A stretch of 64,000 bases of DNA from Candidatus Nealsonbacteria bacterium (GTDB taxonomy: Bacteria > Patescibacteriota > Minisyncoccia > Minisyncoccales > RBG-13-42-11): contig JAHXGL010000002.1 in assembly GCA_019923655.1 (NCBI GenBank), positions 2,933-66,932 of the forward strand, in the 5' to 3' direction. The position numbers were made by a program, and so were the translations under genes. This document shows, one piece after another, positions 1,581 through 56,945 of this stretch. Below the pieces are notes generated by a model. The model had not been told where the DNA came from and ran no database searches. It saw only the letters and a list, made by a program, of their open reading frames with translations. Within the stretch, counting starts at the first letter, position 1. Every line of letters starts with the position of its first letter.

Positions 1581-2811
1581 AACTGCCGGCTATTTTTCTT
1601 AATCTTTTTATTACTTTTGGTAAAACTTTTAAAAGGTAATCAATCTCTTTTTCAGTTGTCCACCTTCCCAAAGTAAGCCGCAAAGAACCATGAGCTTGTT
1701 CCGGTTTTATGCCAATTGCCAAAAGAACATGACTCGGCTCTAATTTTATTGAAGAACAGGCAGAGCCGGTTGAAGCGGCCACTCCCAGCAAATCAAGTTG
1801 AATAACTATTGACTCCCCCTCAACAAACTCAAACCAAAAATTAGCGTTATTTGGCAATCTTTTTTTTGGATGGCCGTTAAGCCGGCTGCCAATTATTTTT
1901 CCAAGAACTCCTTTTATCAGCTTATCTCTTAATTTTGCCTGCTTTATGTTCTCTTTCTCCATTTCTCTTTTACAAATCTTCACTGCTTTGGCAAAACCAA
2001 CAATAGCCGGAATGTTTACAGTAGAAGACCTTAATCCAAATTCCTGGCCGCCGCCGTGTAAAATCGGCTCAATTCTTGTCCCCTCTCTGATAAACAAACA
2101 AGCAACTCCTTTTGGCCCATACATTTTATGGGCAGAAGCTGACAATAAATCAATGTTCATTTTCTGGACATCAATAGGAATTTTTCCAAAACTTTGAACA
2201 GCGTCAGTATGAACGCAAACTCTTTTTTCTTTGCAAATCCTGCCAATTTCCGCAATCGGCTGAATAGTCCCGATTTCGTTTGAAGCGTGAATTATTGAAA
2301 CTAAAATAGTATTTTTCCTTATCGCTTTTTTAACATCTTTTGGATTAACCAAGCCATATCTATCAACCGACAACCGGGTTATTCTAAATCCTTGCCCTTC
2401 CAGCCACTTAGCCGACTCTATAATACAAGGATGTTCAATTTGAGAAATAATGATATGATTGCCTATTTTTTTATTGCCCAGAGCAATTCCTTTCAAAGCT
2501 AAATTATTGCTTTCTGTAGCGGAGCTGGTAAAAATTATTTCATTCGGCTTAGCTCCTATTAAATCAGCTATTACTCCCCTGCTTTCTTCTAAGGCTTGCT
2601 TAGCTTCCTGGCCAAAGCTATGGAGAGACATTGTGTTGCCGAATTTCTCTTCAAAATAAGGCAGTATCGCTTTATTTACTTGTGGATCAACAGGGGTAGT
2701 AGCAGCATAATCCAGGTAAATTCTTTTTTTGGCTCTATTCATTTTCATGCCTAATATTTGCTTTGCTTTTTCATAATTACCTCCATTTCTTGATCTACAA
2801 ATTTTCGCCAT
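1573..2811 (-). CDS. iscS: cysteine desulfurase (class V aminotransferase, IscS/NifS)
   Basis: PLP-lysine region SASAHKMYGPKG and C-terminal active-site cysteine loop (STGSACSS). Confidence 0.85.
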   Translation of the reverse strand: MAKICRSRNGGNYEKAKQILGMKMNRAKKRIYLDYAATTPVDPQVNKAILPYFEEKFGNTMSLHSFGQEAKQALEESRGVIADLIGAKPNEIIFTSSATESNNLALKGIALGNKKIGNHIIISQIEHPCIIESAKWLEGQGFRITRLSVDRYGLVNPKDVKKAIRKNTILVSIIHASNEIGTIQPIAEIGRICKEKRVCVHTDAVQSFGKIPIDVQKMNIDLLSASAHKMYGPKGVACLFIREGTRIEPILHGGGQEFGLRSSTVNIPAIVGFAKAVKICKREMEKENIKQAKLRDKLIKGVLGKIIGSRLNGHPKKRLPNNANFWFEFVEGESIVIQLDLLGVAASTGSACSSIKLEPSHVLLAIGIKPEQAHGSLRLTLGRWTTEKEIDYLLKVLPKVIKRLRKIAGSYE

Positions 2812-3530
2812 TTATCTTCTCCAAGAAATAAAGGATAGGGATATTCTTTATATGAATATTTTAATAATTCAAGGGCTAATCGCCGTTTTTCTAAAATTTC
2901 CACGCTAAATATTAAATTTTTATATGAGTCAACTAAATTAATTTTGGGAGCATATTGACGCATCCACTCAATTGATTTTCCAATTCTCTCGCTTTTGTAT
3001 TTAAGTATAACTGGCCACTTTTTAACTATATTCCCAATTTCTTCTTCGACTAAATAGTTTTTTAGGTTTTCCAAACGGTCATTAATTAGTTTAGAACTAT
3101 AGCTTATAATTCTTGGTTCGCTTATAACTAAACATTTGAACTCCTCTTCGGAAAAATTATACTTGTCTTTTAAGTTTTTTTCTAATCTCTCAAGATAATT
3201 ATTAAATGTCTCTGGTCTATACTTCAAAGTCTTTGGGTATTTTTCAACTATCTTTTTAATCTCTTTATTGGAAAAACGAGCTTTTAAGTTTTCCAAGCGG
3301 TCGCTTATTTTTTTTAGATCTTTTGGCGTCTTTCTTTCTTCAATATTTTTTTCAATAAATCCATTTTTAAGTCCATATTTTTTAACTATGGTTTTTATTG
3401 TTTCTATTTCGTTCAATTTTAATTCTAATGGACTTATCCTTGATTCTTTTCCATGTTTTGATTCTATTATTGGTTCTGATATTTCGAAGTCTTTATTTTC
3501 AAATGGATTTTCAGGTGACTTAAATGACAT
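2751..3530 (-). CDS. hypothetical protein with internal ~35-aa helical repeats
   Basis: ORF with repeated motif (e.g. IVEKYPKTLKY / IVKKWPVILKY, DRLENLK x2); no confident family assignment. Confidence 0.4.
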   Translation of the reverse strand: MSFKSPENPFENKDFEISEPIIESKHGKESRISPLELKLNEIETIKTIVKKYGLKNGFIEKNIEERKTPKDLKKISDRLENLKARFSNKEIKKIVEKYPKTLKYRPETFNNYLERLEKNLKDKYNFSEEEFKCLVISEPRIISYSSKLINDRLENLKNYLVEEEIGNIVKKWPVILKYKSERIGKSIEWMRQYAPKINLVDSYKNLIFSVEILEKRRLALELLKYSYKEYPYPLFLGEDKWRKFVDQEMEVIMKKQSKY

Positions 3531-3578
3531 AAATCTTTTAAATTCCCTTAGAATTTAGAAATTTCAAAATTATAAAAA

Positions 3579-4157
3579 TTAAATTTTTGCAAAATCATAT
3601 TTTCTAAGCTCGCCTGTCGTAATTTCCAAATTAATTATTTCTTGGTTTGATATTTTTTCAATATGTTTTATTATTGCCCTTAAAGAATTATGGCTGGCAA
3701 CCACTAAAACATTTAGTCCCTGCTTTAAGTCTTTTTCAATGTGTTTTTTATAAAAAGGGACGGCTCTATTGAAAACATCTTTCAAGCTTTCCCCTTTTGG
3801 CGGCGCTTCTTCCCAGCTTCTTCTCCACAATCTAACTTGCTCTTCGCCATATTTTGCTTTGACTTGGTCTTTATTCAGCCCCTGTAATTTCCCATAATTT
3901 CTCTCGTCCAACGCTTTATCAATAACAATCGGCAAATGTTCCTTGCCAAGATTTTCTAAAATTAAAGAAACGGTTTCTTTGTTTCTAATTAGCGGCGAAG
4001 TATAAACTTTATCAATCTCAAAGCCGGCAAGTTTCCCGGCAACTTCTTTGGCGCTTTCAATTCCCTGCTTGCTTAAAGGAATATCTGTCCAACCGGTAAA
4101 TCTATTTTCCAGATTCCACTGAGATTGAAGATGTCTTAATAAAATTAATTTTGCCAT
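3579..4157 (-). CDS. gpmA: 2,3-bisphosphoglycerate-dependent phosphoglycerate mutase (histidine phosphatase family)
   Basis: LLRHLQSQWN...RFTGWTD catalytic His motif, QGLNK, WRRS, ASHNSLRA motifs matching GpmA; adjacent to eno. Confidence 0.75.
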   Translation of the reverse strand: MAKLILLRHLQSQWNLENRFTGWTDIPLSKQGIESAKEVAGKLAGFEIDKVYTSPLIRNKETVSLILENLGKEHLPIVIDKALDERNYGKLQGLNKDQVKAKYGEEQVRLWRRSWEEAPPKGESLKDVFNRAVPFYKKHIEKDLKQGLNVLVVASHNSLRAIIKHIEKISNQEIINLEITTGELRKYDFAKI

Positions 4158-6436: not shown

Positions 6437-7467
6437 TAGACAGAATTAATGTGTCTTCCTTCAAGAAAACTTGAAATATTAGCAATCGTTGTATCTAAAA
6501 TCCTTTTCAGAGCTTCCTCGGAATAAAAAGCAATATGAGGAGTAATAATAACCTTTGGATGTTCGCGCAAAAAATGATTTTGAAGAATTGTTTTTAAGTT
6601 ATATTTTTGCTGAAATTGCTTAGTTAAAAGTTCTTTTTCTTCTTTAAGAAAAGCTTCTTCTTCCAAAACATCTAATCCAACCCCTGCCAAGATTTCTTTT
6701 TTTAGCGCTAAAACTAAAGCCTCGGTCTTTATTAACCCTCCTCTGGCAGTATTAATTAATAGCGCTCCTTTTTTAATTTTTCTAATATTATTTTCATTAA
6801 TTAAATGATGAGTTTTAGGATTGAGTACCGTATGAAGACTGATAATATCGGAATGGCCAAGAAGATAATCCAAGTTAACATATTTCAGTTTTAATTTTAA
6901 TTTTCTAATCGTCTTAAAATCTTTTCTGATGTCATAAACTAAAACTTTCATTCCAAAGCCATTGGCGATTCTAACTACCCGAGAACCAATTCGGCCCATT
7001 CCAATAATGCCGATTGTTTTTCCTTCCAAGTCAAATCCTTTTAGATTTTCAAGAGTAAAATCCGCTCTTCTTATTTTTTCTATTGCCAGGGGCAGATTTC
7101 TAGCCAAAGCCAAGATTAAAGCAAAAGTATGCTCGGCAACAGTATTATCCCCGTATGTTGGCACATTAGAAACCCTTATTTTTTGTTTGACGCAAGCCTC
7201 CAAATCAATATGGTCAAATCCAGTAGACATTGTGGTTATAAACTCAAGCTTTGGCAGTCTCTTTAGAATTTCCTTGTCAATTTTAGAATAGATAAAACCA
7301 GCCAGGATTTTTGTCCCCTGGATTTGACTTGCTGTTTTCAAAGTAATGGGTTTTGCAAAAAACTTCAAATCAATTTTTTTAGATAATTTCTGGCAAATTT
7401 CTTCTATCTTTGCTTGAAGGTATTTTTTTTCCAGAGATTTTATTTCAAAAAAAGCGATTTTAATCAT
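6433..7467 (-). CDS. D-isomer-specific 2-hydroxyacid dehydrogenase (D-lactate/phosphoglycerate dehydrogenase-like)
   Basis: NAD-binding GIIGMGRIGSRV, catalytic His/Arg/Glu pattern of the D-2-hydroxyacid dehydrogenase family. Confidence 0.75.
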   Translation of the reverse strand: MIKIAFFEIKSLEKKYLQAKIEEICQKLSKKIDLKFFAKPITLKTASQIQGTKILAGFIYSKIDKEILKRLPKLEFITTMSTGFDHIDLEACVKQKIRVSNVPTYGDNTVAEHTFALILALARNLPLAIEKIRRADFTLENLKGFDLEGKTIGIIGMGRIGSRVVRIANGFGMKVLVYDIRKDFKTIRKLKLKLKYVNLDYLLGHSDIISLHTVLNPKTHHLINENNIRKIKKGALLINTARGGLIKTEALVLALKKEILAGVGLDVLEEEAFLKEEKELLTKQFQQKYNLKTILQNHFLREHPKVIITPHIAFYSEEALKRILDTTIANISSFLEGRHINSVY

Positions 7468-8279
7468 AAAAAATATTTTATTAACCAGCCTCCGTCAACT
7501 ACCAAAGTATGGCCGGTAATATGGTTTGCTTCATCAGATACCAGATAAAGACAGGCAAAAGCAGTGTCCTTTGGCAAGCCGAATTTAGCCAAAGGAATTT
7601 CAGCTAACATTTTTTGCTTTTTTCCTTTATTGGCTTCTAAACGAGATTCAAGCATTTTGGTTTCGGTTTTTCCCGGAGCAATGGCATTAACATTAATTCT
7701 ATAAGGCGCTAAATCCAAAGCCATCTGCCTGGTAAAATCTATCAAGGCTCCTTTGGTGGCAGAATAGACCGCGCTCAAAGGAGATTCGCTCGCAAAACCG
7801 GCCGTAGAAGCAATATTAATAATCCGACCTTGTTTTCTTTTTTTCAAATGAGGAAGAATTGCCCGGCATCCGTAAACAGCGCCGTAAAAATTTACCTTTA
7901 TTATTTTGTCAATTTCTTCCAAAGTCATCTTGGTTAGGTCTTTTTGGATGTAAATACCGGCATTGTTAACCAAAATATCTAATCTCCCCTGCTCTTTTAT
8001 TGTTTCCTGAACCCTTTTTTCAAATTCCTGATAATTGGTAACATCTAATTTTTTAGCATTTGCTTTTCCTTTGGCTTTTTTTATTTCTGCGGCTACTTTT
8101 TCACACTCCCCCTTATCAATATCAGTAACTACTACTCTTGCGCCAGCCCTAGCCAAAACAAGAGCAATTTCTCTGCCAATTCCTTGTTGGCTGCCAGTAA
8201 TTAAAGCAATTTTATTTTTTAATTCAAACATTAAAACTTCTAAATCTTTTTTCGCCGTAAAAAGGCTGGTGTTTCCCAA
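7464..8279 (-). CDS. short-chain dehydrogenase/reductase (FabG-like)
   Basis: TGSQQGIGREIA Rossmann motif, NNAG, YSATKGA catalytic motif. Confidence 0.75.
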   Translation of the reverse strand: MGNTSLFTAKKDLEVLMFELKNKIALITGSQQGIGREIALVLARAGARVVVTDIDKGECEKVAAEIKKAKGKANAKKLDVTNYQEFEKRVQETIKEQGRLDILVNNAGIYIQKDLTKMTLEEIDKIIKVNFYGAVYGCRAILPHLKKRKQGRIINIASTAGFASESPLSAVYSATKGALIDFTRQMALDLAPYRINVNAIAPGKTETKMLESRLEANKGKKQKMLAEIPLAKFGLPKDTAFACLYLVSDEANHITGHTLVVDGGWLIKYFL

Positions 8280-8503
8280 AATTTTTCTTTTTCCAGCATT
8301 TCTCCTTCAATGTCTTGGGCTTCTTTTTTAATCTGAAGCCCGCTCTTTCTTAGTTTTTCTTTTCTGTTTTTAGTCTTAACTTTAGTCTTCCAAACCGAGC
8401 GCTCAACACTTTGAGTGCTTGGTTTGGAAACTTTAAGCGACTCGTTTGGTTTAATTTCAATTTTCGTTTCCAAATTCACATTCGTTTCCAAATCCGTTTC
8501 CAA
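8240..8503 (-). other. out-of-frame continuation of ftsZ carrying the conserved FtsZ C-terminal peptide (ETPAFLRRKK)
   Basis: 87-aa ORF overlapping the ftsZ 3' end in a different frame; ends with the FtsA/ZipA-binding consensus (D/E)-x-P-x-F-L-R-R/K. Confidence 0.45.
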
Positions 8504-8790
8504 ACCACGAAGGGGTTTGGAAACGCGGAGTCTTCCAAATCCATCGCGGATTTAGAAACTTTAGTCTTCCGAATCCCTTTGGGAGTGTTCCAAATCCCTT
8601 TGGGATTTGGAAACGAATTCGGAAACGCAGTCTTCTTTTTTTGCTTTATTGTTCCAAATCTGACAAGATTTGGAAAATTTATTTTTTCTCTTTTTCTCTT
8701 TTTCTTTTTTTGGTGCCCATCTTCCCTGTTTTCCAAGTCTTGAAGGGATTTTGAAACGGACTTGGAAACGGACTTGGAAATGGACTTTTC
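8385..8790. repeat. dense block of palindromic hairpin repeats (stem TTCCAAAYC / GRTTTGGAA), at least 8 tandem or nested copies
   Basis: direct sequence inspection; same unit recurs at 9745, 13906, 18851, 30004, 31210, 34801, 51397, 56403, 58645. Confidence 0.85.
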
Positions 8791-12238: not shown

Positions 12239-12963
12239 ACAGAAAACCAATCAATACTCAAAAATACATTTTAACTTTTTGTTTCACGGCAATAATTTTT
12301 AGTCTTGGTTTTTTTGTAAGCGACTATCTTAATAATAAAAGATTTTCAGAAATAAACACTATGAAACAAAAATTTCAAATACAAGTTTTAGCTATGGAAA
12401 CCCAGCTTGATCATTTTAAGGATATTCTCTGCGCTGATATTGGCGACGATATTTTAACTCACGAACTTCATCTTATTGGCGAAAAGCTGGAATTTATGGC
12501 AAATAATTTAGGCCATAATCATCCTGAAGTGCTTCATCTAAAAAAATACTATTCTCTTCTTCAAATTAGGCACCACCATTTTTCGCAGCAACTTTGTGAG
12601 AGGTGCAATCTTGGGTTAGTTCATATTCTTTATTTTTTCGCGAATACTAAATATTGCCCTGATTGTGAAAAACAGAGCGCGGTTTTGTCTTTTTTGCGAG
12701 AACAATATCCTTTATTAAGGATATATTCTTTTGATTACAATCTTGATCTTATGGCTTTGGCTGCTATTAAGCCATTGCCTCCCAAATCCGCTCTTGAGCT
12801 TAACGGTCTTCCAAATTCTGAACAAGAATCTGAACTTAAATCTGACACAAAACCTTTAATTCAAGAATATGGCTTGCCTATTATTGTTGTTGAAGGCAAG
12901 CCCTTCTGGGGATTTAAAGATATTCAGGAAATGAAAAAAATCCTGCCGTTGACAAGGTTTTAA
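12232..12963 (+). CDS. hypothetical membrane-anchored protein with two CxxC pairs (CERC, CPDC)
   Basis: ORF overlapping the GT2 stop (likely co-transcribed); N-terminal TM helix; no confident homolog recognised. Confidence 0.4.
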   Translation: MVNRKPINTQKYILTFCFTAIIFSLGFFVSDYLNNKRFSEINTMKQKFQIQVLAMETQLDHFKDILCADIGDDILTHELHLIGEKLEFMANNLGHNHPEVLHLKKYYSLLQIRHHHFSQQLCERCNLGLVHILYFFANTKYCPDCEKQSAVLSFLREQYPLLRIYSFDYNLDLMALAAIKPLPPKSALELNGLPNSEQESELKSDTKPLIQEYGLPIIVVEGKPFWGFKDIQEMKKILPLTRF

Positions 12964-13646
12964 CGACTAATTTTTATTTTCTCCTTGCAATCCTCCCAGG
13001 GAACTTCTCCTTCCCCAACCAAAGAACAAATTTCTTTAAATTGGCAATATCGGCATTGCCAATTATCTACTAAATCCAAAATTTTGTCTGGCACAATATT
13101 GGAATCAATTTTAATTTTAAGTTGATTTAAATTATCTAAAAGGACTTGGGCTCGGCTTTTGTCATAAGGTATTATAAACTCTTTTAATTCCTGAGTGTCT
13201 TTATTAACATAAAGAAGAATGCCTTTGGAAATTTTAAAATAATGCAGGTAGAGCTGAATCTGGTCAATATTTTCTTCTTTTGCCTGTTCTAAGCTCTTAA
13301 AAATCATACTGTTCATACTCTTAATGTCAAGAAGGTACATTTCTTTGCTGTCGCTTACTATGGCGTCTGCCCTCCCAGAAATCAATTCCTGGGGCGGAAT
13401 AGCTATTTCTGAGGCAACAATATGAATTCCCCTGATACTCAGTAAAGGTCTCATAATCAACTGGTGGATATAATCACCATGTTCAAACATTCTTAAAATC
13501 CTCGCCTCCATTTCTTTCCTGGGGACATTTTTAAACTTGAAAAATATCGCCCGAGGACATTTACCGGCGTCAGTAATATAAAAATGTTGTTGCTCTTTAT
13601 CTTTTTGCCTGTCTAAATAAAATTTATCAATAAGTTCTTTTAGCAT
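12960..13646 (-). CDS. Cas4-like PD-(D/E)xK nuclease with Fe-S cluster cysteines (DUF83/RecB-family)
   Basis: one N-terminal Cys (CPRAIF), motif II D (DAIVSD), motif III DIK, QxxxY (QIQLYLHY), C-terminal CRYCQFKEIC (Cx2Cx5C). The ORF track's start at 13805 runs over a non-coding element, so the Met at 13646 is preferred. Confidence 0.7.
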   Translation of the reverse strand: MLKELIDKFYLDRQKDKEQQHFYITDAGKCPRAIFFKFKNVPRKEMEARILRMFEHGDYIHQLIMRPLLSIRGIHIVASEIAIPPQELISGRADAIVSDSKEMYLLDIKSMNSMIFKSLEQAKEENIDQIQLYLHYFKISKGILLYVNKDTQELKEFIIPYDKSRAQVLLDNLNQLKIKIDSNIVPDKILDLVDNWQCRYCQFKEICSLVGEGEVPWEDCKEKIKISR

Positions 13647-13658
13647 AGCTTCCTTATA

Positions 13659-13961
13659 GGAGTGTGAGATTCGAACCCACATTAGTTGAGCGGGAACAAT
13701 TTGAGTCATATTCAAGGCACGAGGAGTGAAGTGTGCCTTTAGGCACATAAGCGACGAGTAACGAAGAAGATGGCTCAAATTGACCCGCCCCAAGGGGAAG
13801 CTCAAAAATGGATGATTTCTTTGTTGCTCCTCCTCAAGGTGCTTGTCAGCACGATTTCGTTGTCGCGCCTTGAAATCATCTCATTTTTGAGCTTCTCAAT
13901 CTAAAGTTTCCAAATCCCTTTGGGATTTGGAAGACTGATGTGGGTTCGGATCTCACACTCC
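13659..13961. mobile_element. 303-bp element bounded by 24-bp terminal inverted repeats (GGAGTGTGAGATYCGAACCCACAT) that mimic a tRNA T-arm/acceptor; contains one hairpin-repeat copy
   Basis: left TIR 13659-13682 and right TIR 13938-13961 differ at one base (T/C, 23/24 identical when reverse-complemented); element lies exactly between the rpsI stop and the Cas4-like start. Confidence 0.45.
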
Positions 13962-13962
13962 T

Positions 13963-14397
13963 TTATCTTTTTGACCACTGGGGCGCTCGCCGAGCGCGCT
14001 TTAGACCAAATTTTTTCCTTTCTCTCATTCTGGGGTCTCTGGTTAGATAGCCGGCTTTTTTTAATGTTTTTCTGAAATCAAGATTAAAAATAGTCAAAGC
14101 CTTAGCCAATCCATGTCTTACTGCTTCAGCTTGAGCATTCAAACCGCCCCCTTTCGCCTTAACGAGAATATAAAATTTATCCAAACAATTTATTTTCTCA
14201 AGAGAAGAAAGGGCTGTTTGCTGAAGCTCAAAACAAGGGAAATAACTTTTCAAGGGCTTATCATTGACCAAATTTTCAAAACCAAGACCTTCAAAGAGTC
14301 GGACTCTGGCAACCGCTGTTTTTCTTCTGCCTACTGCTTCAAAATACTTTGTTGGTTTTTTTTTATCCTTGGTTTTTAAAATCCCCTTTTTTTTCAT
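13963..14397 (-). CDS. rpsI: 30S ribosomal protein S9
   Basis: C-terminal RRAPQWSKR and overall S9 similarity. Confidence 0.9.
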   Translation of the reverse strand: MKKKGILKTKDKKKPTKYFEAVGRRKTAVARVRLFEGLGFENLVNDKPLKSYFPCFELQQTALSSLEKINCLDKFYILVKAKGGGLNAQAEAVRHGLAKALTIFNLDFRKTLKKAGYLTRDPRMRERKKFGLKRARRAPQWSKR

Positions 14398-16550: not shown

Positions 16551-17033
16551 TTATACCCTTCTCGCTTTGACCGGCCGACATCCATTATGGGGAATAGGGG
16601 TAATGTCTTTAATTGAAATGATGTCTATTCCTCGAGCCACCAAAGACCTGATAGCTGATTCCCGACCACTGCCAATTCCTTTTACTAAAATAACTACTTT
16701 AGTAATTCCAATTTTCTTAATTGTTTGCGATATCGCCTCGGCTACCTTAGAAGCAGCGAACGGAGTGGCTTTTTTGGCTCCCTTAAAACCAACACTGCCA
16801 GCGCTCATCCAAGCCAAAACATTTCCCTGAACATCAGTTAAACTAATAATAGTATTATTATAAGAAGAAGAAATGCAAACCCTTGCCTTTTTAACTTTTT
16901 TAGCGGCTTGTTCGGCTTCTCCTTTAATCTTTGCCTCTACTTTTCCAAGTTCGTTTGGGGATTGGAGGGCTTCCCTGCCTCTTTCTTTTAACAATTCTTC
17001 TTCGGTTTGAGCGATAATTCGTTTTTTACCCAT
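16551..17033 (-). CDS. rpsK: 30S ribosomal protein S11 (with ~40-aa N-terminal extension)
   Basis: ISSSYNNTIISLTD...MSAGSVGFKGAKKATPFAA S11 core. Confidence 0.9.
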   Translation of the reverse strand: MGKKRIIAQTEEELLKERGREALQSPNELGKVEAKIKGEAEQAAKKVKKARVCISSSYNNTIISLTDVQGNVLAWMSAGSVGFKGAKKATPFAASKVAEAISQTIKKIGITKVVILVKGIGSGRESAIRSLVARGIDIISIKDITPIPHNGCRPVKARRV

Positions 17034-17034
17034 A

Positions 17035-17424
17035 TTATTTCGGAGCCGGCGCAGCTCTCTTTCCCGACCCGATAGTTCTTCTAATATTTCCTCTTATTGT
17101 TCTACTATTGGTCTTTGTTCTTTGTCCTCTTGCAGGCAATCTTTTAATGTGACGAATTCCCCGCCAAGCGCTTATATCTTTTAATCTTTTAATATCCTTT
17201 ATCCGTTCCCGCCGCAATTCTCCTTCAATCTTACATTTCTTTTCAATAACTTCTTTAAGTTGGGAAATTTGTTGCGGAGTTAATTCTATTGCCTTAAGGG
17301 AAAAATCAATCTTTGCCTCGTCTAAAATTTTCCTGCTCAAAGAACGACCAATGCCATAAATATAAGTCAATGCAATAATTATTTGTTTATTTTCAGGGAT
17401 ATTTGTCCCGGCAATTCTCGGCAT
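17035..17424 (-). CDS. rpsM: 30S ribosomal protein S13
   Basis: MPRIAGTNIPENKQIIIALTYIYGIG N-terminus. Confidence 0.9.
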   Translation of the reverse strand: MPRIAGTNIPENKQIIIALTYIYGIGRSLSRKILDEAKIDFSLKAIELTPQQISQLKEVIEKKCKIEGELRRERIKDIKRLKDISAWRGIRHIKRLPARGQRTKTNSRTIRGNIRRTIGSGKRAAPAPK

Positions 17425-17462
17425 AAATTTTCCAAATCTTGTCAGATTTGGAACAATAATCT

Positions 17463-17859: not shown

Positions 17860-19278
17860 TTAGTCAAGTTCAAACCTTAATTTAATTTCAATTTTGTCTA
17901 AATCTTCAGGCGCTCTATCCACCCAGAATGGCCAAAACTTTGGACTGGCTCTAATAATATCTGGCTTTGCTTCCAAAAAATCTTTAGTTTCATACAACGA
18001 CTTTCCCTTAACCGTATTTTCTAAAATCAGAATATTAATGTAGGGATAAATTTTTGCGGCAGCTTCCAAGGCAAGACTCATTTTACCCTGGTCCAAATCA
18101 AAGTCTGTTAAAGAATAATCTATTCTTAAACTCGGCTGATGAATTTGTTTGGTTTCAGGAATTTGGGTCTTAATAAATTCTATGGCAAAATCTTTTAAGT
18201 TTTGTTCTTTGAAAATTAAAGTTTTTGACTCAACTTTAACCTGAAAATTAAAATTTTCCATTTCCATTCCCGGCTTAGCCAAAGAAAAGGTTTCAATAAT
18301 TTCGGTCTGAATTGCCTGGTCAAAGAAAACAAACCCCATTTGCTCTTTGGTTTTTATTTTATTTTCAAAAAAAGCTCGGCTTTCTTTTTTCGCTCTTTCG
18401 CTCAAAATGTTTTTTGCTTTCTCTAAATCTTGTTCCGTCACCTGAATCATTTCTCTGGAAAAACCGCCTGTCATTGATTCAAAAGATTCAGCGTAAAAAT
18501 TAACAAAAAGCGGGGTTCCGACTAATCCCGGAATAGAGAAAGTAGAAGTCCCAATATTATGCCCCTCTCCCGGGACATCGGCAACTACCCTAACATCAAT
18601 ATGTCCGGGTATTATTTTTCCTCTTTCACGACTTTTGCCCGGAATAGTTATTCTGGTCGGCGTTCGGAACACTTTCCCTTCAGCTGATATAAAACGAGTT
18701 CTAGGGATAAAAGATTGAGAAGAAAATGAGTGTTTGTTAAAAACCCTTATTGTTCCTTCAGCTTTTCCCTGTTTTAGAACCTTGGCAGAAGCAGGAAAGA
18801 CATCAGCAACCGTTCTTTTTTCTCTAAAAATTTGGCCGGGAATAACCTTAGTCTTCCAAACCACGAAGGGGTTTGGAAACGAAGTCTTCCAAACCACGAA
18901 GGGATTTGGAAACGAAGTCTTCCAAACCTCTTCAGGTTTGGAAACTTTATTTTCAAAATCAAGTCCTTCTATGCCAATATCAATTTTTAATTCTGTGTTA
19001 AAAGTCTGAATTTCTGTTTTTGGCCAAACTTCTATTACTGCCTTAGGCAGAGTAAAAAAAGCAAGGGCTCCAAGCAAAACTAAAACTGATAATCCTAAAA
19101 TTAGCCATTTTTTATTAAACCCCTGCCTTGGTTTAGCTGTTTTTTTTTCTAAATCTTCTAAGATATTGGCTTCTTTGAAGGGTTTCAAACCCTTTTTGCG
19201 ATCTCGGACACCGGGTTCTAAAATTTGTTCGCGATTTGACGCACAAGGGGGAAAAATGTCAATTACTTTTTTAGTCAT
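17860..19278 (-). CDS. hypothetical membrane-anchored protein (single N-terminal TM) containing three in-frame hairpin-repeat units
   Basis: TM segment WLILGLSVLVLLGALAFF; WKTSFPNPFVV repeated (33-bp period = 11 codons); no family recognised. Confidence 0.5.
   Translation of the reverse strand: MTKKVIDIFPPCASNREQILEPGVRDRKKGLKPFKEANILEDLEKKTAKPRQGFNKKWLILGLSVLVLLGALAFFTLPKAVIEVWPKTEIQTFNTELKIDIGIEGLDFENKVSKPEEVWKTSFPNPFVVWKTSFPNPFVVWKTKVIPGQIFREKRTVADVFPASAKVLKQGKAEGTIRVFNKHSFSSQSFIPRTRFISAEGKVFRTPTRITIPGKSRERGKIIPGHIDVRVVADVPGEGHNIGTSTFSIPGLVGTPLFVNFYAESFESMTGGFSREMIQVTEQDLEKAKNILSERAKKESRAFFENKIKTKEQMGFVFFDQAIQTEIIETFSLAKPGMEMENFNFQVKVESKTLIFKEQNLKDFAIEFIKTQIPETKQIHQPSLRIDYSLTDFDLDQGKMSLALEAAAKIYPYINILILENTVKGKSLYETKDFLEAKPDIIRASPKFWPFWVDRAPEDLDKIEIKLRFELD
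18851..18945. repeat. three tandem hairpin-repeat units (33-bp period) inside a coding sequence
   Basis: gtcttccaaaccacgaaggggtttggaaacgaa x2 plus a variant copy. Confidence 0.85.
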
Positions 19279-29996: not shown

Positions 29997-30003
29997 AATT
30001 CGT

Positions 30004-30036
30004 AGTCTTCCAAATCCATTCGGATTTGGAAACGTA
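30004..30036. repeat. hairpin-repeat copy in the rplP-rpmC intergenic spacer
   Basis: gtcttccaaatccattcggatttggaaacg. Confidence 0.8.
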
Positions 30037-34695: not shown

Positions 34696-35376
34696 TTAAC
34701 TTTTCGTGGTTTTCTTATTTTGCTCATTTGCTTGTTTTTCCTGCCCTTGTATTTTGGTTTTCATTTTTTCTTGTTTTTCGTCTCCAAGCTCCTTTACTTC
34801 GTTTCCAAACCCCTTCGTGGTTTGGAAGACTTCCAAAGGAATTGCTGAAGCAACACTCTCTTCTGGATCTTTAAGAATTTTAACATCGTTAGGAATAACT
34901 AAATCTTTAATCAAAATACTATCTTCAAAAGTTTTTATTTTTTCTATATCTACTTTAATTTCATAAGGAAGATTTTGAGGCAGAGCTTTGACTTCTACTT
35001 CATAGATATTCTTAACCAAGGTTCCGCCTAAATTTTTACAAACTAACGCCTCACCCTCAAAAACCAAAGGAACAACAGCAGTAATCTCTTTATCAAGTTT
35101 TGGCTGGTAAAAATCAATATGAATTATTGCTCCGGTAATAGGGTCTTTTTTTGTTTCATAAATTAGAACCAAAAACTTTTGGTCCTGTACTTCAAGAGAA
35201 ATTAAAGAAGACTCTCCGGCTTGTTTATAAACATTTTCAAATTCTTTTAAGTTTACTTCCAAAGCTTGATTTTTGATTTTTGGTCCATACAAAACCGCTG
35301 GCAAAATTTCTTTTTCCCTTAAAATCTGTGTTTTCTTGCCCATATCTTTTCGTGTTTTAGCTGATAAACTAATCAT
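34696..35376 (-). CDS. rplY: 50S ribosomal protein L25 / general stress protein Ctc, with in-frame hairpin-repeat insertion in the C-terminal tail
   Basis: N-terminal L25 motif ILPAVLYG; C-terminal EVFQTTKGFGNEV encoded by the palindrome at 34801-34830. Confidence 0.8.
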   Translation of the reverse strand: MISLSAKTRKDMGKKTQILREKEILPAVLYGPKIKNQALEVNLKEFENVYKQAGESSLISLEVQDQKFLVLIYETKKDPITGAIIHIDFYQPKLDKEITAVVPLVFEGEALVCKNLGGTLVKNIYEVEVKALPQNLPYEIKVDIEKIKTFEDSILIKDLVIPNDVKILKDPEESVASAIPLEVFQTTKGFGNEVKELGDEKQEKMKTKIQGQEKQANEQNKKTTKS

Positions 35377-45981: not shown

Positions 45982-46050
45982 ATTGTTTTTATTTTAACAG
46001 TTACTGAATAAAAATAAACCCCGCGTCAACGGAGTGTGAGATTATAAACA

Positions 46051-46167: not shown

Positions 46168-46352
46168 ATCTATAATCTTTATGATTTTTGTTTTGACGCG
46201 GGATATAAAGCTTTTAACGATTATTAATTGCTAGCCAAAAAATTGCTGATGATTTATTAGTACTGCTCGGCTTAACCCATTACTGAGCTTACACCTACAG
46301 CCTATCAAGGTCGTCATCTTCGACCAATCTAAGAGTCCTAATCTTGGAGCCT

Positions 46353-46383
<31 letters not shown>

Positions 46384-46572
46384 AGTTCCCGACTTAGCTA
46401 CCCAGCAATGCTCCTGGCGGAACAGCTGGTACACCAGAGGTCGATTCAGCCTGATCCTCTCGTACAAAGGCCAACCCTCCTCAAGACTCAAACGCCTGCG
46501 GTAGATAGAGACCAACCTGTCTCACGACGGTTTGAACCCAGCTCACGTACCACTTTAATTGGCGAACAGCCA

Positions 46573-46615
<43 letters not shown>

Positions 46616-46622
46616 CACTAAA

Positions 46623-47518
46623 TTTCTATTATTACTAATAGCGTAGACTATACCTTTATCTAGAACATCCATTCTAGACACCAACGTTTTATAGTACTTA
46701 ACGCACTATCTTCATCCCGCGTAATGCGGAAATCTAGTCGTTACGGGGTCGCGAAAACCTATTTTATACATCATCGAAGGGATGATGTATGGACGTATGA
46801 CATTGGTTAATTTTTTCGTTTCTTCTTGGTTACAATACATCCTGTATCCTTTATCGCGATCGCGATAATATCGGATCTGAATGTTGAAAATGTTCTCGAA
46901 ACATTTTTGCAGAAAAATTATTTCTGGCAAAGAAAAAGAATAAGTGCTTATGTCAATTTTGCCTTTGGAATATGAACCGTCGTCCATAATCCAGACGGCT
47001 AAAGCGAAAGGGGTTAATTCTTTTCCGATTTCAAATGGAATAATCTTCCTTCCATTTTTATAACCTTCTCTCTTGTAGAATTTTTTGTAGATTTCAGTAA
47101 ACAACGGGTGTCTTATCGTTCTGAACCACCATGATTTTTCATATTTATTGCCTTTTTCATCATATCTGTAACTCATTTTAGGCTCAGTAAATACAAACGG
47201 TTTTAGTATTTGATATTTCCAATCAACATACTTTTTTTGAACTAACCCGTGATCTACTTTGAAATTGACATTTTGAGCTCCTTTGCCCAAACGCATCGTT
47301 CCATCGCCAAGAAGAGATCCAATGATTAATGATCTCTGTTTCGAATTTAACCTCAGAGATTTTTTAATCAGAATCCACTTTTTGTGCCAATGTTTATTTT
47401 CGCAACTTCCCACGGTGTTGACCATATATTTAGCTAATTATAGCAAATTTACTGGGTCTTTATAAATATATGGCTTTCTCCGTTATGAGTTGGTTTATCC
47501 TCGACATTCGGCTACTTT
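46623..47518 (-). mobile_element. group I intron (inferred) in 23S domain V, between CACCTCGAT and GTCGGCTC (E. coli ~2500 region), carrying a LAGLIDADG ORF
   Basis: exon sequence is contiguous with E. coli 23S when 46623-47518 is removed. Confidence 0.65.
46712..47425 (-). CDS. LAGLIDADG homing endonuclease (double-motif)
   Basis: motifs LIIGSLLGDGTM and LAVWIMDDGS. Confidence 0.85.
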   Translation of the reverse strand: MVNTVGSCENKHWHKKWILIKKSLRLNSKQRSLIIGSLLGDGTMRLGKGAQNVNFKVDHGLVQKKYVDWKYQILKPFVFTEPKMSYRYDEKGNKYEKSWWFRTIRHPLFTEIYKKFYKREGYKNGRKIIPFEIGKELTPFALAVWIMDDGSYSKGKIDISTYSFSLPEIIFLQKCFENIFNIQIRYYRDRDKGYRMYCNQEETKKLTNVIRPYIIPSMMYKIGFRDPVTTRFPHYAG

Positions 47519-47749
47519 ATCGAGGTGCCGAACAGGGCCGTTAATGTGAACTTGCAGGCCCTACCAGCCTGTTATCCCCGGGGTAGCTTTTATCTGATGA
47601 TCCTCCCCATTTCTATAAATAAGGGTCGGTTCACTAAGTTCTGGTTTCCCATCTGCGCGGCATATCCGCCTTGCAGTTAAGCCGGCTTATCCCTTTACAG
47701 GACCGCTCCGATTTCCATCCGGAGCTAGCCGACCTTATAAACGCCTCCA

Positions 47750-48406
47750 CTACTCTTTAGGCAATTCTGTTAACCTTAAAACTCTTGGAATTTTATATTT
47801 CATCGAAGAAATTATGTGTGGTTTTATCAATGCGATAAACTTTTCTCCAGATTTTCCTCCTAAATAAATTTGTTTTCCATTTTTCTCTTTTCTTGTTGTA
47901 CTGCTAATTCCGAATTTAACCTTCAATACCTCTTGAAGTCTTTTCACATCATCCTCTCTAAATCCTTGGGTGTTTAAAAATAAACCCTTGTGTTTTCTCG
48001 ATTTAATTGATCCGTCATCCATATACCAAATCGCTAATCCTAAAGGAGTAATATCCTTTTCTAAGTCATTCGGTATAATTTTCTTTCTTTTTCTGTAAAA
48101 TTTTTCTTGGAATTCTCCTAACAATCTATGACCATAAGTAATGAATCCATAATTCAGGTAAGTTTTATTCCAAACTTTCTTTCTCTTTGATTTTGGTTTA
48201 CTCCTTATCCAATTCCGAAATTCCTCATAAATCCAGTCAACATATTCTTTCTGTTTGTAGCTGTGTTCTACTTTTAATCTTCCTAGTATCGGTGTATACA
48301 ATCTTTCTAAATGACCATCTCCTAAAATCAAACCAATTAAGATTTCTTTTTGTCTTTGACTTAGAGAGAGTTTACTTTTATATTCTTCGATTTCTTTACT
48401 TCGCAT
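47750..48406 (-). CDS. LAGLIDADG homing endonuclease (double-motif)
   Basis: motifs LIGLILGDGHL and LAIWYMDDGS. Confidence 0.85.
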   Translation of the reverse strand: MRSKEIEEYKSKLSLSQRQKEILIGLILGDGHLERLYTPILGRLKVEHSYKQKEYVDWIYEEFRNWIRSKPKSKRKKVWNKTYLNYGFITYGHRLLGEFQEKFYRKRKKIIPNDLEKDITPLGLAIWYMDDGSIKSRKHKGLFLNTQGFREDDVKRLQEVLKVKFGISSTTRKEKNGKQIYLGGKSGEKFIALIKPHIISSMKYKIPRVLRLTELPKE

Positions 48407-48690
48407 AATTTCAGAGTTTAAGTTTCGGATTAGTTAGCGGGCACTAAAACTAACCTTGCCGAATCTTTAGGTCGCCCTAAAGTTCAGACTGTATCACTAC
48501 CCCTTGAAATAATTCTATATCTCAAAGGGACTCGACATACAGTCGTTGAGGGCATCCGCCTTTGGCGGGTTTCCCTGCTGATTGTCCGCACCAAAGAATT
48601 ATTACTTAATTTTATCAAAATTAAGTATCTTTGGATACTCGGATGTTCCAGCATATTAGTCGAGTTTGCTCTAAAGATTACTCTTTAGAG
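47751..48690 (-). mobile_element. second group I intron (inferred) in 23S, upstream of the CCTAAAGAGTA block, carrying a LAGLIDADG ORF
   Basis: exon blocks ...GTAGTTTAAGTGGGGC and GCCTAAAGAGTAGTGGAGG are separated by ~940 bp; boundaries approximate. Confidence 0.55.
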
Positions 48691-51396
48691 GCCCCATAAA
48701 TTAAGGCAAGTGCCCCACTTAAACTACCTACCAGACACTGTTTTTCGCCAATTAAGGCAAAGTTAGAACAAAGACCTTGAAAGACGGGTGTTTCATTGGC
48801 GTCCTGCTCTCAAAGAACAGAACTCCCCGCTACACTACACATTCAAAGCCAAAATTCAATATCTGGCTATAGTAAAGCTCCCGGGGTCTTTTCGTCTAGC
48901 CGCAGGTAACCGGCATCTTTACCGGTATTGCATTTTCACCGAGCTCCTCGTTGAGACAGTTCCCAAGTCGTTAAGCCTTTCATGCGGGCCGGAACTTACC
49001 CGGCAAGGGATTACGCTACTTTAAGACGGTTATAGTTACCGCCGACGTTCACTGGCGCTTCATTCAGTCAGCGCCAAACACATAAACTATGCGCTTGACA
49101 CCGCCAAATTTAACGTTCCAGCACTGGTCAGGCCTCAGCCCCTATACATCCTCTTACGAGTTAAGCAGGGACCTGTGTTTTTGATAAACAGTCGCCTGGG
49201 ATACTTTTGTTGCAGCCCAGCCTTGTGCAAAGCACAAGGTCAGGCAGTCCTTATTGCGAACTTACGGACACTTTTTTGCCGAGTTCCTTAACGAGGTTTC
49301 ACTCGTTCACCTTGGCACATTTACGCCTACCCACCTGTGTCGGTTTACGGTACGGACTAAACGCATAACTAACTCCTAAGAAGTTTTTCTGGGAAGCTTG
49401 CTCATTTGAGTTCATCCCACCGTAGCAGGACTTCCTGTTAGCCCTTGAAAAATCTCAAGCTAACAACAGAAATCCAATAATCTGCTCAAATTACTAAACT
49501 CCGTCACTCCTTAGAATTATGCGCTCAGGGGCCGGAATATTAACCGGCTGTCCATCATCCAGGCCATTCGGCCAAAGACTAAGGACCGCCTAACCCTTGG
49601 TTGATTGTCATTGCCAAGGAAACCTTAGGTTTTCGGTGTCCCGGGCTCTCACCGGGATTGCGGTTACTCATGCCAACATTCTCACTCCTTAGCGCTCCAC
49701 CAAACCTCACGGTTTGACTTCGCAGCACTAAAGACGCTCCCCTACCACCCATGAAATAAAAATATCTCACGGGTCCTTATCTTCGGTACTAAGCTTAGTC
49801 CCGGTAATCTTCGGCGCGAAATTCCTTAATTAGTAAGCTATTACGCACTTTTTAAAGGATAGCTGCTTCTAAGCTAACCTCCTAACTATCTTTGGAAATT
49901 CACTTCCTTAAAAACACTTAGCTCTTCGCAACCCTTTTAATAAAAGAGTTGGAACCTGCCTTTCAGCAGTAGTTTAGGGACCTTAGATAAAGATCTGGGC
50001 TGTTTCCCTTTTGACTATGGAGCTTAGCCCCCACAGTCTAACTCCCCGCCAAAATTTTTTCGCCATTCGGAGTTTGATTGGAAAGACTAGGCAAAGCCCA
50101 CGTAATTCCATTCAGTGCTCTACCTGCGAAAATTTAGGCGAAGGCTAGCCCTAAAGCTATTTCGGGGAGAACCAGCTATTACCAAGCTCGATTAGCTTTT
50201 CACTTCTTACCACAGCTCATCCCAGAGTATTGCACGGCTCACGGGTTCGGGCCTCCTCTCGACTTTCGTCGAGATTCACCCTGGCCATGGCAAGCTCGCT
50301 TGGCTTCGGGTTCTCTATTTCCAGTCTTCCTGATAAATCAGGGGTCGCGCTATTAACACTTGCTTTCGCTTTGCCTTCGCCCCAGAAGGGCTTAGACAAA
50401 CTGAAAATAAAGACTCGTTGGCTCGTTCTGCAAAAAGCACGTCATCACCCCGCCGAAGCGGAGCTCTGACTCTTTGTAGGCGTGATGGTTTCAGGTTCTA
50501 TTTCACCGCCCTTCCGGGCTACTTTTCACCTTTCCCTCACGGTACTGGTTCACTATCGGTGAGATTAAGTATTTAGCCTTGGCTGATAGTTCAGCCTGCT
50601 TCCTTCAAGGTTTTCATTCCTTGAAGTACTCAAGTATAACAGTTAGGAGCATGAAATCGTTTTCGCTTACAGGACTATTACCTTCTTTGGTCAGGCTTTC
50701 CATCCTTGTTTAGCTAACGAAATTTCATTTTGATAGACTCCTTTTGAAGCAAAAGCTCCAAAACACCATTAACTTACAACCCCCAGCCACACCTCGCTAC
50801 GCTCGGTATTCACTTAAACGTAAAGCGTAAAACGTAAAATGCAAAACAACAGTTCAAAATTCAAAACAAAATGTTTTAAGTTTTAGGTTGTTATTTTACG
50901 CTTTTCGCTTTTAGTTTTTCATTTAAGTTCGTACCAAGCGCAAAGAGGTATGGCTAGGTTTGGGCTATTCCCTTTTCGCTCGCCGCTACTAAGGGAATAT
51001 CCTTGTGCGGAGCACAAGGCTTGTTTTCTTTTCCTCCGCTTACTGAGATGTTTCACTTCAGCGGGTTCGCCGCCGCGCAGAGCGCGGCTTGCCGTGGTTT
51101 ACACGGCAGGGTTTCCCCATTCGGAAATCCCCGGATCAAAGGTTGGTAGCCACCTCCCCGAGGCTTATCGCAAGCACCCTACGTCCTTCATCGCCTTAAT
51201 CTCCCAAGGCATCCTCCATCCGCCCTTAAAATGCAATTTGGCATACCAATTTTGTAAAACAAAATTGATAAGTTTGGCTAGCAATTAATAATCGCTATGT
51301 TTACCCTGTTAAATAATTTGCTTCGCAAATTAAAAATCAAAGATTTTTATTTAATAGGGTGAATCCTGTTAAATAATTTTGCCTTCGGCAAAATTG

Positions 51397-51520
51397 CTCG
51401 GTTTGGAATACTTCGTTTCCAAACCAAGCATTCAAAGTGTTGAGTGCTCGGTTTGGAATACTTCGTTTCCAAACCAAGCATTCAAAGTGTTGAGTGCTCG
51501 GTTTGGAATACTGCGGAACA
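51397..51520. repeat. about 2.3 tandem copies of a 57-bp unit in the 23S leader, each containing a long-loop variant of the hairpin repeat
   Basis: gctcggtttggaatacttcgtttccaaaccaagcattcaaagtgttgagt repeated. Confidence 0.8.
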
Positions 51521-51770
51521 GCATTTAACAGGGTGAATTTTTAATGTTCTTTCCTTTCTCTGCTAATTATCAATTAATTGGTAATTAGCAGAAAAAAGAA
51601 AAATCGCTTTTAGAAAGCGATTTTTCAGAACATAAACAAAAATTCTGGAATTTAACCGCTTTCCTTCTTTAGAATGGTTTTATTTTTTCTCATGCTTAAT
51701 TTAGAAACGCGGGATTCAAACCAACATATCAGTCCAAACTCGCATTCTTAATATTAACAGAATAAAAATC

Positions 51771-52623: not shown

Positions 52624-52700
52624 TGGCTGCGGGGCCTGGACTCGAACCAAGATCGCGAGAGCCAGAATCTCGAGTGCTACCAAAATTACACCACCCCGCA
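52624..52700 (-). tRNA. tRNA-Gln (anticodon CTG), CCA encoded
   Basis: manual fold: acceptor UGCGGGG/CCCCGCA with U1-A72, D-stem GUGU/GCAC, anticodon stem CGAGA/UCUCG, loop UUCUGGC, T-arm CUUGG-UUCGAGU-CCAGG, G73, CCA. Confidence 0.8.
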
Positions 52701-52723
52701 AAATGATTATGTCCTTTTTTGCG

Positions 52724-53650
52724 TTATACTTTTAGATAACTCCTGGTTGCCAAAAAACTGGAAATCATTCCCAGTCCTATGCCAATGGATATTTGAATCA
52801 AAAAAATAAGCCAAATATTTTTAATAAAGAAACTAAATATATTCAAGCCAGGAAGTAAAAGCTCTAATCTTGGACTAATTAGCCAAGAACCCAAAGCAAA
52901 AAACGAGAGGCAGATTAAAGCGGCAAAAACACCAATCATCATTCCCTGAACTAAAAAGGGTCCCCGAATAAACCAGTTTGTCGCTCCAACCAATCTCTGA
53001 ATTTTTATTTCTTCCCGGGAACTGTAAATAGCTAATCTAATAGTGTTAAAAACAATCAAAACTGCCATAATCGCCAAAATTGCTACTAAACCAATCCCCA
53101 CTCTATTTAAATTGGCAGTAAGGGCAAAAATCCTTTCAATGGCCGGCTTTGTTTCCTTATAATCAACTTTTTCAATAAATTCTTTTATAGGTTCGGTTTC
53201 TAAAAATTTTGCTATTGCCTGATAATAAACAGGTCCGGCTGCCCTGATATTTAAAGAGGATAAAAAAGGATTAAACCCCAAAACATTCAAAGACTCCATT
53301 AAAACCGGGTCGTCTTGGTGTCTCTTGATAAAATCCTTAAGGGCTTGCTCTTGAGAAACATATTCAACATCTTCTACGCCGTCCATATTGGCAATTTTTT
53401 CTTTAATCTCCCGAATATCTTGTTCCAATGTTTCAAATCTAAAATGAGCCGAGATATCAACTCTTGCCTGAATGCTTAAAATCAGGAACTGGCTAATATG
53501 ATTAAAGAAAAAAAGCGAAGTAATAACCGAAAGCATCATTACCATAATAAAAATATTAACTATTGCCAAGCCCTTGTTCCGACCAAAACTTCTCCCGCTC
53601 GCTTTTATAATTCGTTTAAATGAAATAAACATAGAAGCCATAATTCTCAT
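52724..53650 (-). CDS. ftsX: cell division ABC transporter permease FtsX
   Basis: 4-TM FtsX topology with large periplasmic loop, follows ftsE. Confidence 0.85.
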   Translation of the reverse strand: MRIMASMFISFKRIIKASGRSFGRNKGLAIVNIFIMVMMLSVITSLFFFNHISQFLILSIQARVDISAHFRFETLEQDIREIKEKIANMDGVEDVEYVSQEQALKDFIKRHQDDPVLMESLNVLGFNPFLSSLNIRAAGPVYYQAIAKFLETEPIKEFIEKVDYKETKPAIERIFALTANLNRVGIGLVAILAIMAVLIVFNTIRLAIYSSREEIKIQRLVGATNWFIRGPFLVQGMMIGVFAALICLSFFALGSWLISPRLELLLPGLNIFSFFIKNIWLIFLIQISIGIGLGMISSFLATRSYLKV

Positions 53651-54327: not shown

Positions 54328-54337
54328 TTATATTATT

Positions 54338-54570
54338 GGGTAAAGTCTGAAAAACGGACCTATTTGTTCGTAATTTAGCTTAAAGCATCAGAAGCTCAGC
54401 AATCAAGTTTCAAGTCACCGGCTGTTAAAATCCCAGCGAGATTTTACAGCCTGCGTTCTCGGCTTGTTGTCCCTCACTTTGTTCGGGAACCATGCCAACA
54501 AGCCTGCGAAAGCTGCCTTGAAACTTATTGCCTCACTTCTGAAATCGGTCCGGGAAATCGAACTTTACCC
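54338..54570. mobile_element. 233-bp MITE-like element with terminal inverted repeats GGGTAAAGT...ACTTTACCC, flanked by 7-bp direct repeat TATTATT
   Basis: near-identical to 56154-56387; inserted precisely between the prfB stop (54573) and the ftsE start (54327). Confidence 0.8.
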
Positions 54571-54572
54571 TA

Positions 54573-55670: not shown

Positions 55671-55685
55671 ATTTGGTCATCATTA

Positions 55686-56147: not shown

Positions 56148-56153
56148 ATATTT

Positions 56154-56387: not shown

Positions 56388-56402
56388 ATATTTCCAAATG
56401 AA

Positions 56403-56430
56403 GTTTCCAAATCCGTAGGATTTGGAAGAC
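56403..56430. repeat. hairpin-repeat copy in the rpsL-rpsG spacer
   Basis: gtttccaaatccgtaggatttggaagac. Confidence 0.8.
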
Positions 56431-56437
56431 TAAAATT

Positions 56438-56860: not shown

Positions 56861-56945
56861 AGTAAAAAATCAAAAATTAAAAATCAAAAATATAATCACT
56901 TAGCGCTTAAATTAAATTCTAACAAATAAATTTAAAATTGTCAAT

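Follow-up and report, generated by a model that had tools for sequence, protein, structure and literature searches.

A 305-bp inverted-repeat element with tRNA-like ends between rpsI and a Cas4-like gene, a likely non-autonomous mobile element of a Patescibacteria population

The window, which is the whole 64-kb stretch of DNA analysed, carries rpsI at 13963-14397 (minus strand; Pfam Ribosomal_S9, E = 1e-39) and a Cas4-like gene at 12960-13646 (minus strand). The latter encodes a 228-aa PD-(D/E)XK nuclease with Cas4-type PHROG matches (E = 3e-30) and a Pfam Cas4 score just under the threshold. Both neighbours had been named in the initial annotation and were confirmed by the Ribosomal_S9 and PHROG matches. 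The spacer between them is filled by an element with inverted ends, here called element A, which measures 303 bp as first delimited and 305 bp with the outermost A...T pair. The 303-bp form is separated from the rpsI stop codon by 1 nt and from the Cas4-like ATG by 12 nt; the 2 and 13 nt given before differ only in the way of counting, and the element does fill the spacer. Exact-protein look-ups found the window proteins again in the assemblies BBPE, BBPF and BBPG, which are metagenomes of The Cedars serpentinizing springs (PMC7005843). The homologues of the examined proteins belong to Patescibacteria.

The inverted ends are 24-mers at 13659-13682 and 13938-13961, identical at 23 of 24 positions; the left one reads ATGTGGGTTCGAATCTCACACTCC on the minus strand and the right one ATGTGGGTTCGGATCTCACACTCC on the plus strand. 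The end pattern ATGTGGGTTCGRATCTCACACTCC, with up to three mismatches, matched in the 64-kb window only at 13659-13682 (minus) and 13938-13961 (plus), and 0 of 100 shuffles contained a match, so the element with its two ends was described correctly at the outset. The length of 24 bp was too short: the inverted-repeat search gave arms of 32 nt (13655-13686 against 13934-13965, 91% complementary), and the minimum-energy fold gave a 30-bp terminal stem in which 13658-13687 is paired with 13933-13962. The features of the element are as follows.

13658-13962, no strand: whole element A (13659-13962 swapped for one base in contig L001; break of similarity of the second copy; minimum-energy fold)
13658-13687, no strand: left terminal inverted repeat, one arm of the 30-bp stem (pattern search, repeats, fold)
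13933-13962, no strand: right terminal inverted repeat, the other stem arm (within the last 88 nt, identical in the second copy)
13664-13680, minus strand: T-arm-like hairpin GTGGG-TTCGAAT-CTCAC (consensus scan; 23/24 against real tRNA 3' ends), followed by the acceptor-like ACTCCT at 13663-13658 on the minus strand
13940-13956, plus strand: T-arm-like hairpin GTGGG-TTCGGAT-CTCAC with G at the A58 position (relaxed-loop consensus scan), followed by ACTCCT at 13957-13962
13690-13788, no strand: internal hairpin 1, an imperfect 99-nt palindrome with apex GTGTGCCTTTAGGCACAT (fold, repeat search)
13795-13897, no strand: internal hairpin 2, 103 nt with a perfect 14-bp base (fold; base disrupted without compensation in the second copy)
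13908-13932, no strand: REP-like unit of a short palindromic family of the genome, TTCCAAATCCCTTTGGGATTTGGAA (identical in the second copy)

The terminal stem encloses the three hairpins at 13690-13788, 13795-13897 and 13908-13932. The folding energy was -143.6 kcal/mol for the minus strand and -161.4 kcal/mol for the plus strand, with z = -12.7 and -13.2 against shuffles, respectively. With DNA parameters the whole element also forms one hairpin (-88 and -83 kcal/mol). The plus-strand fold is the more stable by 18 kcal/mol and contains 9 G-U pairs, an excess that was not significant as a sign of the RNA strand. The third hairpin is one unit of the palindromic family TTCCAAAYC..GRTTTGGAA, as had been noted; many other units lie elsewhere in the window, often in tandem. 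The only ORF spans 44 aa and its start is not kept in the second copy, so element A codes for nothing. Protein-domain searches of the element had no match. Rfam reported no family at element A when the whole window was searched at gathering thresholds, and at E <= 10 on 13400-14200 only noise appeared (miRNA and CRISPR-repeat models matching the REP hairpin). Promoter and terminator scans of the element revealed nothing convincing, and no interior promoter-like site faces the Cas4-like gene.

The ends had been proposed to resemble the T-stem-loop and 3' acceptor of a tRNA, and this likeness is real. The strict T-arm consensus (5-bp stem ending in G, loop TTCRRNY, then C) matched in the 64-kb window only the real tRNA-Gln and the two ends of element A, while random sequence of the same composition gave 0.19 strict hits per window. 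The left end satisfies every T-arm position (G53, T54, T55, C56, R57, A58, C61 and the 5-bp stem) and is 23/24 identical to real tRNA gene 3' ends in metagenomes (for example contigs L011 and L036). In the right-end loop, TTCGGAT, a G replaces the near-invariant A58. A degenerate form of the end pattern matched 61 metagenome loci, mostly ordinary tRNA 3' ends, and three of them were relevant here. ARAGORN detected no tRNA or tmRNA at element A and only one tRNA in the window, tRNA-Gln at 52624-52700; the Rfam tRNA model at E <= 10 had no match in 13400-14200. The ends are without CCA, and among the metagenome hits from the Cedars assemblies BBPD and BBPG no tRNA had the exact 3' end of element A. 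Element A is not a tRNA gene or a tRNA pseudogene. Termini like those of a tRNA are unusual among bacterial MITEs. Thirteen nucleotides of the outer end of the element (GGAGTGTGAGATT) also recur exactly at 46031-46043, in the stem next to the 5S rRNA gene, probably by chance.

Comparison of synteny, which the initial annotation had proposed, showed that the closest relative has no such spacer. In contig BBPE01000310 (L001) the rpsI stop is followed by 16 nt and then by the Cas4-like ATG. This empty allele reads 'aaaaagataaGTataaggaagctattatgc', and the corresponding strand of the window reads 'aaaaagataaA[GGAGTG...CACTCC]tataaggaagctatgc'; the two alleles of the rpsI/Cas4 junction are spanned by gataaGTataagg and gataaAGGAGTG. 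In the BLAST alignment, L001 and the window share 98.3-99.9% identity along 12.4 kb, one base replaces 13659-13962, and 13963 and 13658 are joined across that single base. The Cas4-like gene and the remaining neighbours are unchanged. The filled allele was found in the window and in Logan contig L002 (run DRR093102), which carries the element A junction and ends inside the REP unit. L002 and L001 show just 2 mismatches over 3,490 nt, so the filled allele and the empty one stand on essentially one strain background; by reading of both sequences, the two mismatches fall within about 35 nt of the insertion. Another Logan contig (L070) stops at the last base common to both alleles, as expected if both occur in that sample, and the BBPF scaffold has a run of N across the site. 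The element is thus present or absent with boundaries at its repeats. The polymorphism could in principle be the deletion of an old element instead of a recent insertion.

The 24-bp end sequence was also found elsewhere, in a second copy at an unrelated locus, which makes two copies in all. Copy 2 is carried by BBPG01000263 (L009/L066), BBPF01000019 (L065) and BBPD01004252 (L063), and matches the right-hand 226-227 nt of element A with 92.5% identity. Its flank differs, and the similarity ends exactly at ...CACACTCCT; in the contigs the break reads ...CTCACACTCCT, at CTCCT. Since the remainder of the copy 2 scaffolds is 98.4-100% identical to window 52624-57838, the host is the same species. 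The contigs of BBPF and BBPG start at the apex of internal hairpin 1, and the left end is absent from the assemblies. We looked for this left end or an empty site via the neighbouring 423-aa gene, and found two assemblies that start inside the element and relatives that have no element there. All of the substitutions in copy 2 (16/16) lie between 13769 and 13874, and the last 88 nt, with the REP unit and the terminal repeat, are identical to element A. At 11 changed paired positions, 4 keep a wobble pair, 5 are broken, 1 could not be scored and 0 are compensated. There is thus no sign of selection on the fold: five pairs are broken and none is restored. Judged from these two sequences, the changes read as the pattern of a decaying mobile element whose ends matter, and not of an RNA selected for its fold.

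Copy 2 adjoins, without a spacer, a conserved block (GCTGGCCGTTTATCG...) upstream of a Patescibacteria gene for a 423-aa protein (L065/L066 228-1870; L074 111-1766; L071 3795-5461). The protein had no Pfam, NCBIfam or PHROG match, and its confident structure model (pLDDT 86.7) had no fold match in PDB. In two relatives the gene is bracketed by inverted repeats of 92-98 bp that are 99-100% complementary, which are not present in L075-L077. Compared with L071, L065 has a segment downstream of the gene in the opposite orientation. Around the gene in one relative (L071/L072) there are an IS110-family transposase, a GIY-YIG nuclease and a large serine recombinase (2041-3138, 3374-3703 and 6839-8419), and this is a region rich in mobile elements. 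The 423-aa gene usually adjoins tRNA-Gln. The tRNA-Gln 3' end (window 52624; L065 1980-1981) is exactly where the contigs of BBPF and BBPG stop, and these contigs are scaffolded to the 423-aa gene; relatives keep this adjacency, whereas the window runs instead into a 233-aa ORF and the rRNA operon. It suggests a strain-level rearrangement or an island at the tRNA-Gln 3' end.

A short form of the end sequence was found in another Cedars contig, BBPG01009948 (L019), whose species is not tied to the host of element A. Here a 29-nt palindrome, AGGAGTGTGGGTTCGAATCCCACACTCCT, with the layout AGGAGTGTGGG-TTCGAAT-CCCACACTCCT (11-bp arms around the T-loop), splits a YbaK/EbsC ORF, and the protein halves on either side are in different frames. 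Removing exactly these 29 nt gives a protein that matches Pfam tRNA_edit and aligns with Patescibacteria homologues without a gap at the junction, so the end sequence of element A exists as a short insertion in a coding gene. The outer halves of the element A ends, when joined, give the same 11-7-11 palindrome. We infer that this solo form is a collapsed remnant, left by a deletion that ran from one near-repeat of the two ends to the other (CCCACA and CTCACA). Alternatively, it could be the element in a minimal form. The interrupted gene also has a second frameshift in an A-run (L019 785-830, minus strand; AAEN|WLKK), which is either a sign of a pseudogene or a homopolymer sequencing error.

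The flanks at the rpsI site can be read as TTAT[element]TTAT and the empty allele as TTAT-AC-TTAT (TTATACTTAT). As a pre-insertion site this allele is not clean, and it does not look like the clean result of an excision either. In L019 the solo accounts for exactly 29 extra nt and shows no duplication. Models with a TA, a 4-bp or a 7-bp target duplication were tried, and none fits all three junction sets.

Copies of element A can be marked by the string GTGGGTTCGRATCTCACACTCC. No further ones were present among the 61 metagenome loci beyond the two copies and one solo. The exact end 22-mer gave 0 hits in the genomes of 185,579 species (one genome each) and in viral contigs, the solo palindrome also gave 0 hits in this genome collection, and blastn of element A against plasmid and phage collections had no match. 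Inspection of the ORFs of the 64-kb window by eye revealed no transposase or recombinase, and an autonomous partner with matching ends was found neither among these ORFs nor in the metagenome, reference-genome or virus collections. In the literature on MITEs in Patescibacteria, or on MITEs with tRNA-like ends, we found nothing relevant.

Taken together, element A is probably a non-autonomous mobile DNA element of the MITE/foldback type, 305 bp long and native to the Patescibacteria (CPR) population of The Cedars. This reading follows from the empty site, the second copy that ends at the repeat, the lack of coding capacity and the lack of compensatory evolution. The small non-coding size, terminal inverted repeats, polymorphism and occurrence at several loci are those of a MITE, while no cognate autonomous element appeared in the window ORFs and the collections searched. 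The element would have been inserted in the 16-nt spacer, downstream of the rpsI stop codon and ahead of the ribosome-binding site of the Cas4-like gene, and would be moved in trans by an enzyme that is encoded elsewhere in the genome, outside the window, and recognises the terminal repeats. A DDE-type MITE or a single-strand REPIN-like mechanism are both possible for the class of this mover. The mobile context is present in the same genome, which carries another small element, element B, that has a clean target duplication of 7 bp and is missing from its site in a sister strain. Of the proposal of a MITE whose ends derive from a tRNA integration site, the MITE part is upheld by the empty site and copy 2; a tRNA origin of the ends found no support, with no tRNA nearby and no exact match in the Cedars assemblies. 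Element A is a new family of an ordinary kind.

Other explanations have to be weighed against the same observations. Element A might be a REPIN-like doublet, with two inverted 29-nt REP-type units around a spacer that is moved as single-stranded DNA, without target duplication, by a tyrosine transposase of the IS200/IS605 or RAYT type. The solo palindrome beside inverted doublets, the lack of a consistent target duplication at the three sites and the single hairpin formed with DNA parameters would all suit it, and the genome is full of another REP-like palindrome family whose tandem arrays differ between strains. REPINs, however, are typically about 100 nt long, extragenic and present in tens to hundreds of copies, while element A has 305 nt and was sighted two or three times; the solo palindrome is intragenic, no Y1/RAYT gene was seen by eye in the 64-kb window, and the inner halves of the end sites co-varied as a simple 32-nt inverted repeat and not as independent palindromes. 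We consider this explanation unlikely. An RNA selected for its fold is more doubtful still, whether it is imagined as an RNase III/RNase P module, an insulator between the operon and Cas4, or a small RNA of the plus strand. The extreme folding on both strands (z about -13) and the greater stability of the plus strand with its G-U pairs would fit such an RNA, and so would the ends, since tRNA minihelix-like ends are classical substrates of RNase P and the CCA enzyme. It is opposed by the near-identical strain that has no element and keeps the genes 16 nt apart, by the different gene context of copy 2, and by the want of an Rfam match or a convincing promoter or terminator. The initial annotation had offered a structured RNA or RNase III substrate; the element does fold if transcribed, but the five broken and zero compensated pairs speak against a maintained structure.

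Two recombination-based explanations are less probable again. In one, the 11-7-11 sites are recombinase cores and the 245-bp interior flips to control the Cas4-like gene. The layout is indeed like tyrosine-recombinase core sites, with inverted arms around a 7-nt spacer, and the element lies directly upstream of a gene. An inversion would place the junction ...CCCACATTAGTTGAGC beside rpsI, but the orientation was the same in all assemblies (window, L002 and copy 2 in L009/L065/L066), no recombinase gene was seen in the window by eye, nothing promoter-like in the interior points to the Cas4-like gene, and a sister strain misses the element altogether; such a switch is very improbable. In the other, which had been raised at first, element A is the scar left when an integrase inserted DNA at a tRNA-like site and brought in the Cas4-like gene as cargo. 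Its ends do resemble the tRNA 3' segments that integrative elements duplicate. The repeats are inverted and not direct, though, the sole tRNA gene of the window is distant (52624-52700), and the empty allele contradicts the cargo idea, since the Cas4-like gene is there too, with the same neighbours. We give this scar almost no credence.

The mobile-element reading places element A near several known systems. Like the bacterial MITEs Correia/NEMIS of Neisseria, ERIC and RUP, it is small (100-400 bp in these families) and non-coding, with long terminal repeats that let the whole unit form a hairpin; it also shares with Correia, ERIC and RUP the intergenic position in operon spacers and the variable presence between strains. 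Transcribed copies of these elements form double-stranded RNA, and Correia transcripts are cleaved by RNase III. Correia elements duplicate TA, whereas element A has no demonstrable regular target duplication, and it differs from the three families by its very low copy number, the T-arm and acceptor in its terminal repeat and the lack of a known cognate transposase. REP/REPIN sequences with RAYT also occur as palindromic singlets and inverted doublets that fold as one hairpin, without target duplication; element A is about three times the usual size and rare, with one singlet in a coding gene and no RAYT identified. Rickettsia palindromic elements are likewise small palindromic mobile sequences of a reduced genome that are able to land in protein-coding genes. 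They insert in frame and are tolerated in the proteins, while the 29-nt solo shifts the frame of YbaK/EbsC.

The likeness to a tRNA minihelix or attachment site lies in GTGGG-TTCGAAT-CNCAC-ACTCC, which fits the T-arm consensus and real tRNA 3' ends (23/24). In the solo, a 5-bp T-stem is stacked on a 6-bp acceptor-like stem, which reaches the 12 bp (7+5) of the classical minihelix if the flanking T and A are counted. Unlike tRNAs and attachment sites, element A has no cloverleaf, no discriminator-CCA and no detection by ARAGORN or Rfam, its repeats are inverted, and no tRNA gene lies there. The tRNA-like termini could point to how the element is recognised. One speculative extension, which we regard as doubtful, is that the ends are working tRNA mimics and that the 11-7-11 palindrome is recognised by tRNA-directed machinery. 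The recogniser might be a recombinase or a transposase whose usual targets are tRNA 3' ends, or at the RNA level RNase P, RNase Z or the CCA-adding enzyme, and recognition would then either drive the mobility of element A or process host transcripts at its landing sites. If this is true, such tRNA-mimicking mobile elements would form a family peculiar to the reduced genomes of CPR, and solo 'minihelix' insertions would be the traces that it leaves.

Other small repeats were observed in the same window. Element B has two copies of 233 nt (54338-54570 and 56154-56386) that are 98% identical, with a 9-bp terminal repeat GGGTAAAGT and clean 7-bp target duplications, TATTATT for the first copy and TATATTT for the second. 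The second copy has the empty site 'tatattt' in the sister assembly BBPF (L065 5370-5376), and element B had no match in Rfam. The REP-like family consists of palindromes of about 31-33 nt, AGTCTTCCAAAYC..GRTTTGGAAAC, often in tandem arrays, at these loci of the window:

8384-8431, 8494-8759, 16941-16971, 17423-17455, 18847-18945
30001-30035, 34796-34843, 51395-51544, 56401-56431

The arrays vary between strains, and one lies at L065 3694-3803 where the window has element B (54338-54570). The rRNA region is also interrupted. The 23S rRNA gene (46250-51225, minus strand) appears as three Rfam pieces split by insertions, two of which carry ORFs (46712-47425 and 47750-48406) with the LAGLIDADG-like motifs LLGDG and ILGDG, as judged by eye. 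These insertions are probably rRNA introns with homing endonucleases, which are common in CPR bacteria. The 64-kb window contains no 16S gene.

The insertion may also matter for the neighbouring genes. In the empty allele, rpsI and the Cas4-like gene are 16 nt apart and the AAGGAAG ribosome-binding site of the latter is kept, so it is very likely, as far as the gene arrangement tells, that they are co-transcribed. In the filled allele the shared transcript would carry a hairpin of 305 nt whose base is a 30-bp duplex; if transcribed together with the rplM-rpsI operon, element A is predicted to fold to -143 kcal/mol. By likeness to other bacterial MITEs, such a hairpin is expected to impede read-through or attract a double-strand RNase. 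Element A therefore probably uncouples the Cas4-like gene from the rplM-rpsI operon by pausing, termination or double-strand RNase cleavage. If there is such an effect at the RNA level, it is best regarded as a secondary outcome of the insertion. The presence of the element probably alters the expression of a Cas4-type nuclease, and the two alleles form a natural pair for comparison.

For annotation, the lesson is that the rpsI/Cas4 spacer is not a tRNA remnant, and that it is not an integration scar or a conserved RNA gene either. The very small genomes of CPR/Patescibacteria are believed to contain little mobile DNA. Three kinds of small repeats, namely element A, element B and the REP-like arrays, differ here between strains of 98-100% identity, and they indicate active or recent genome turnover on a micro-scale in a subsurface population that grows slowly. 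Specialist attention is warranted for the tRNA-like termini and for the solo 'minihelix' insertion.
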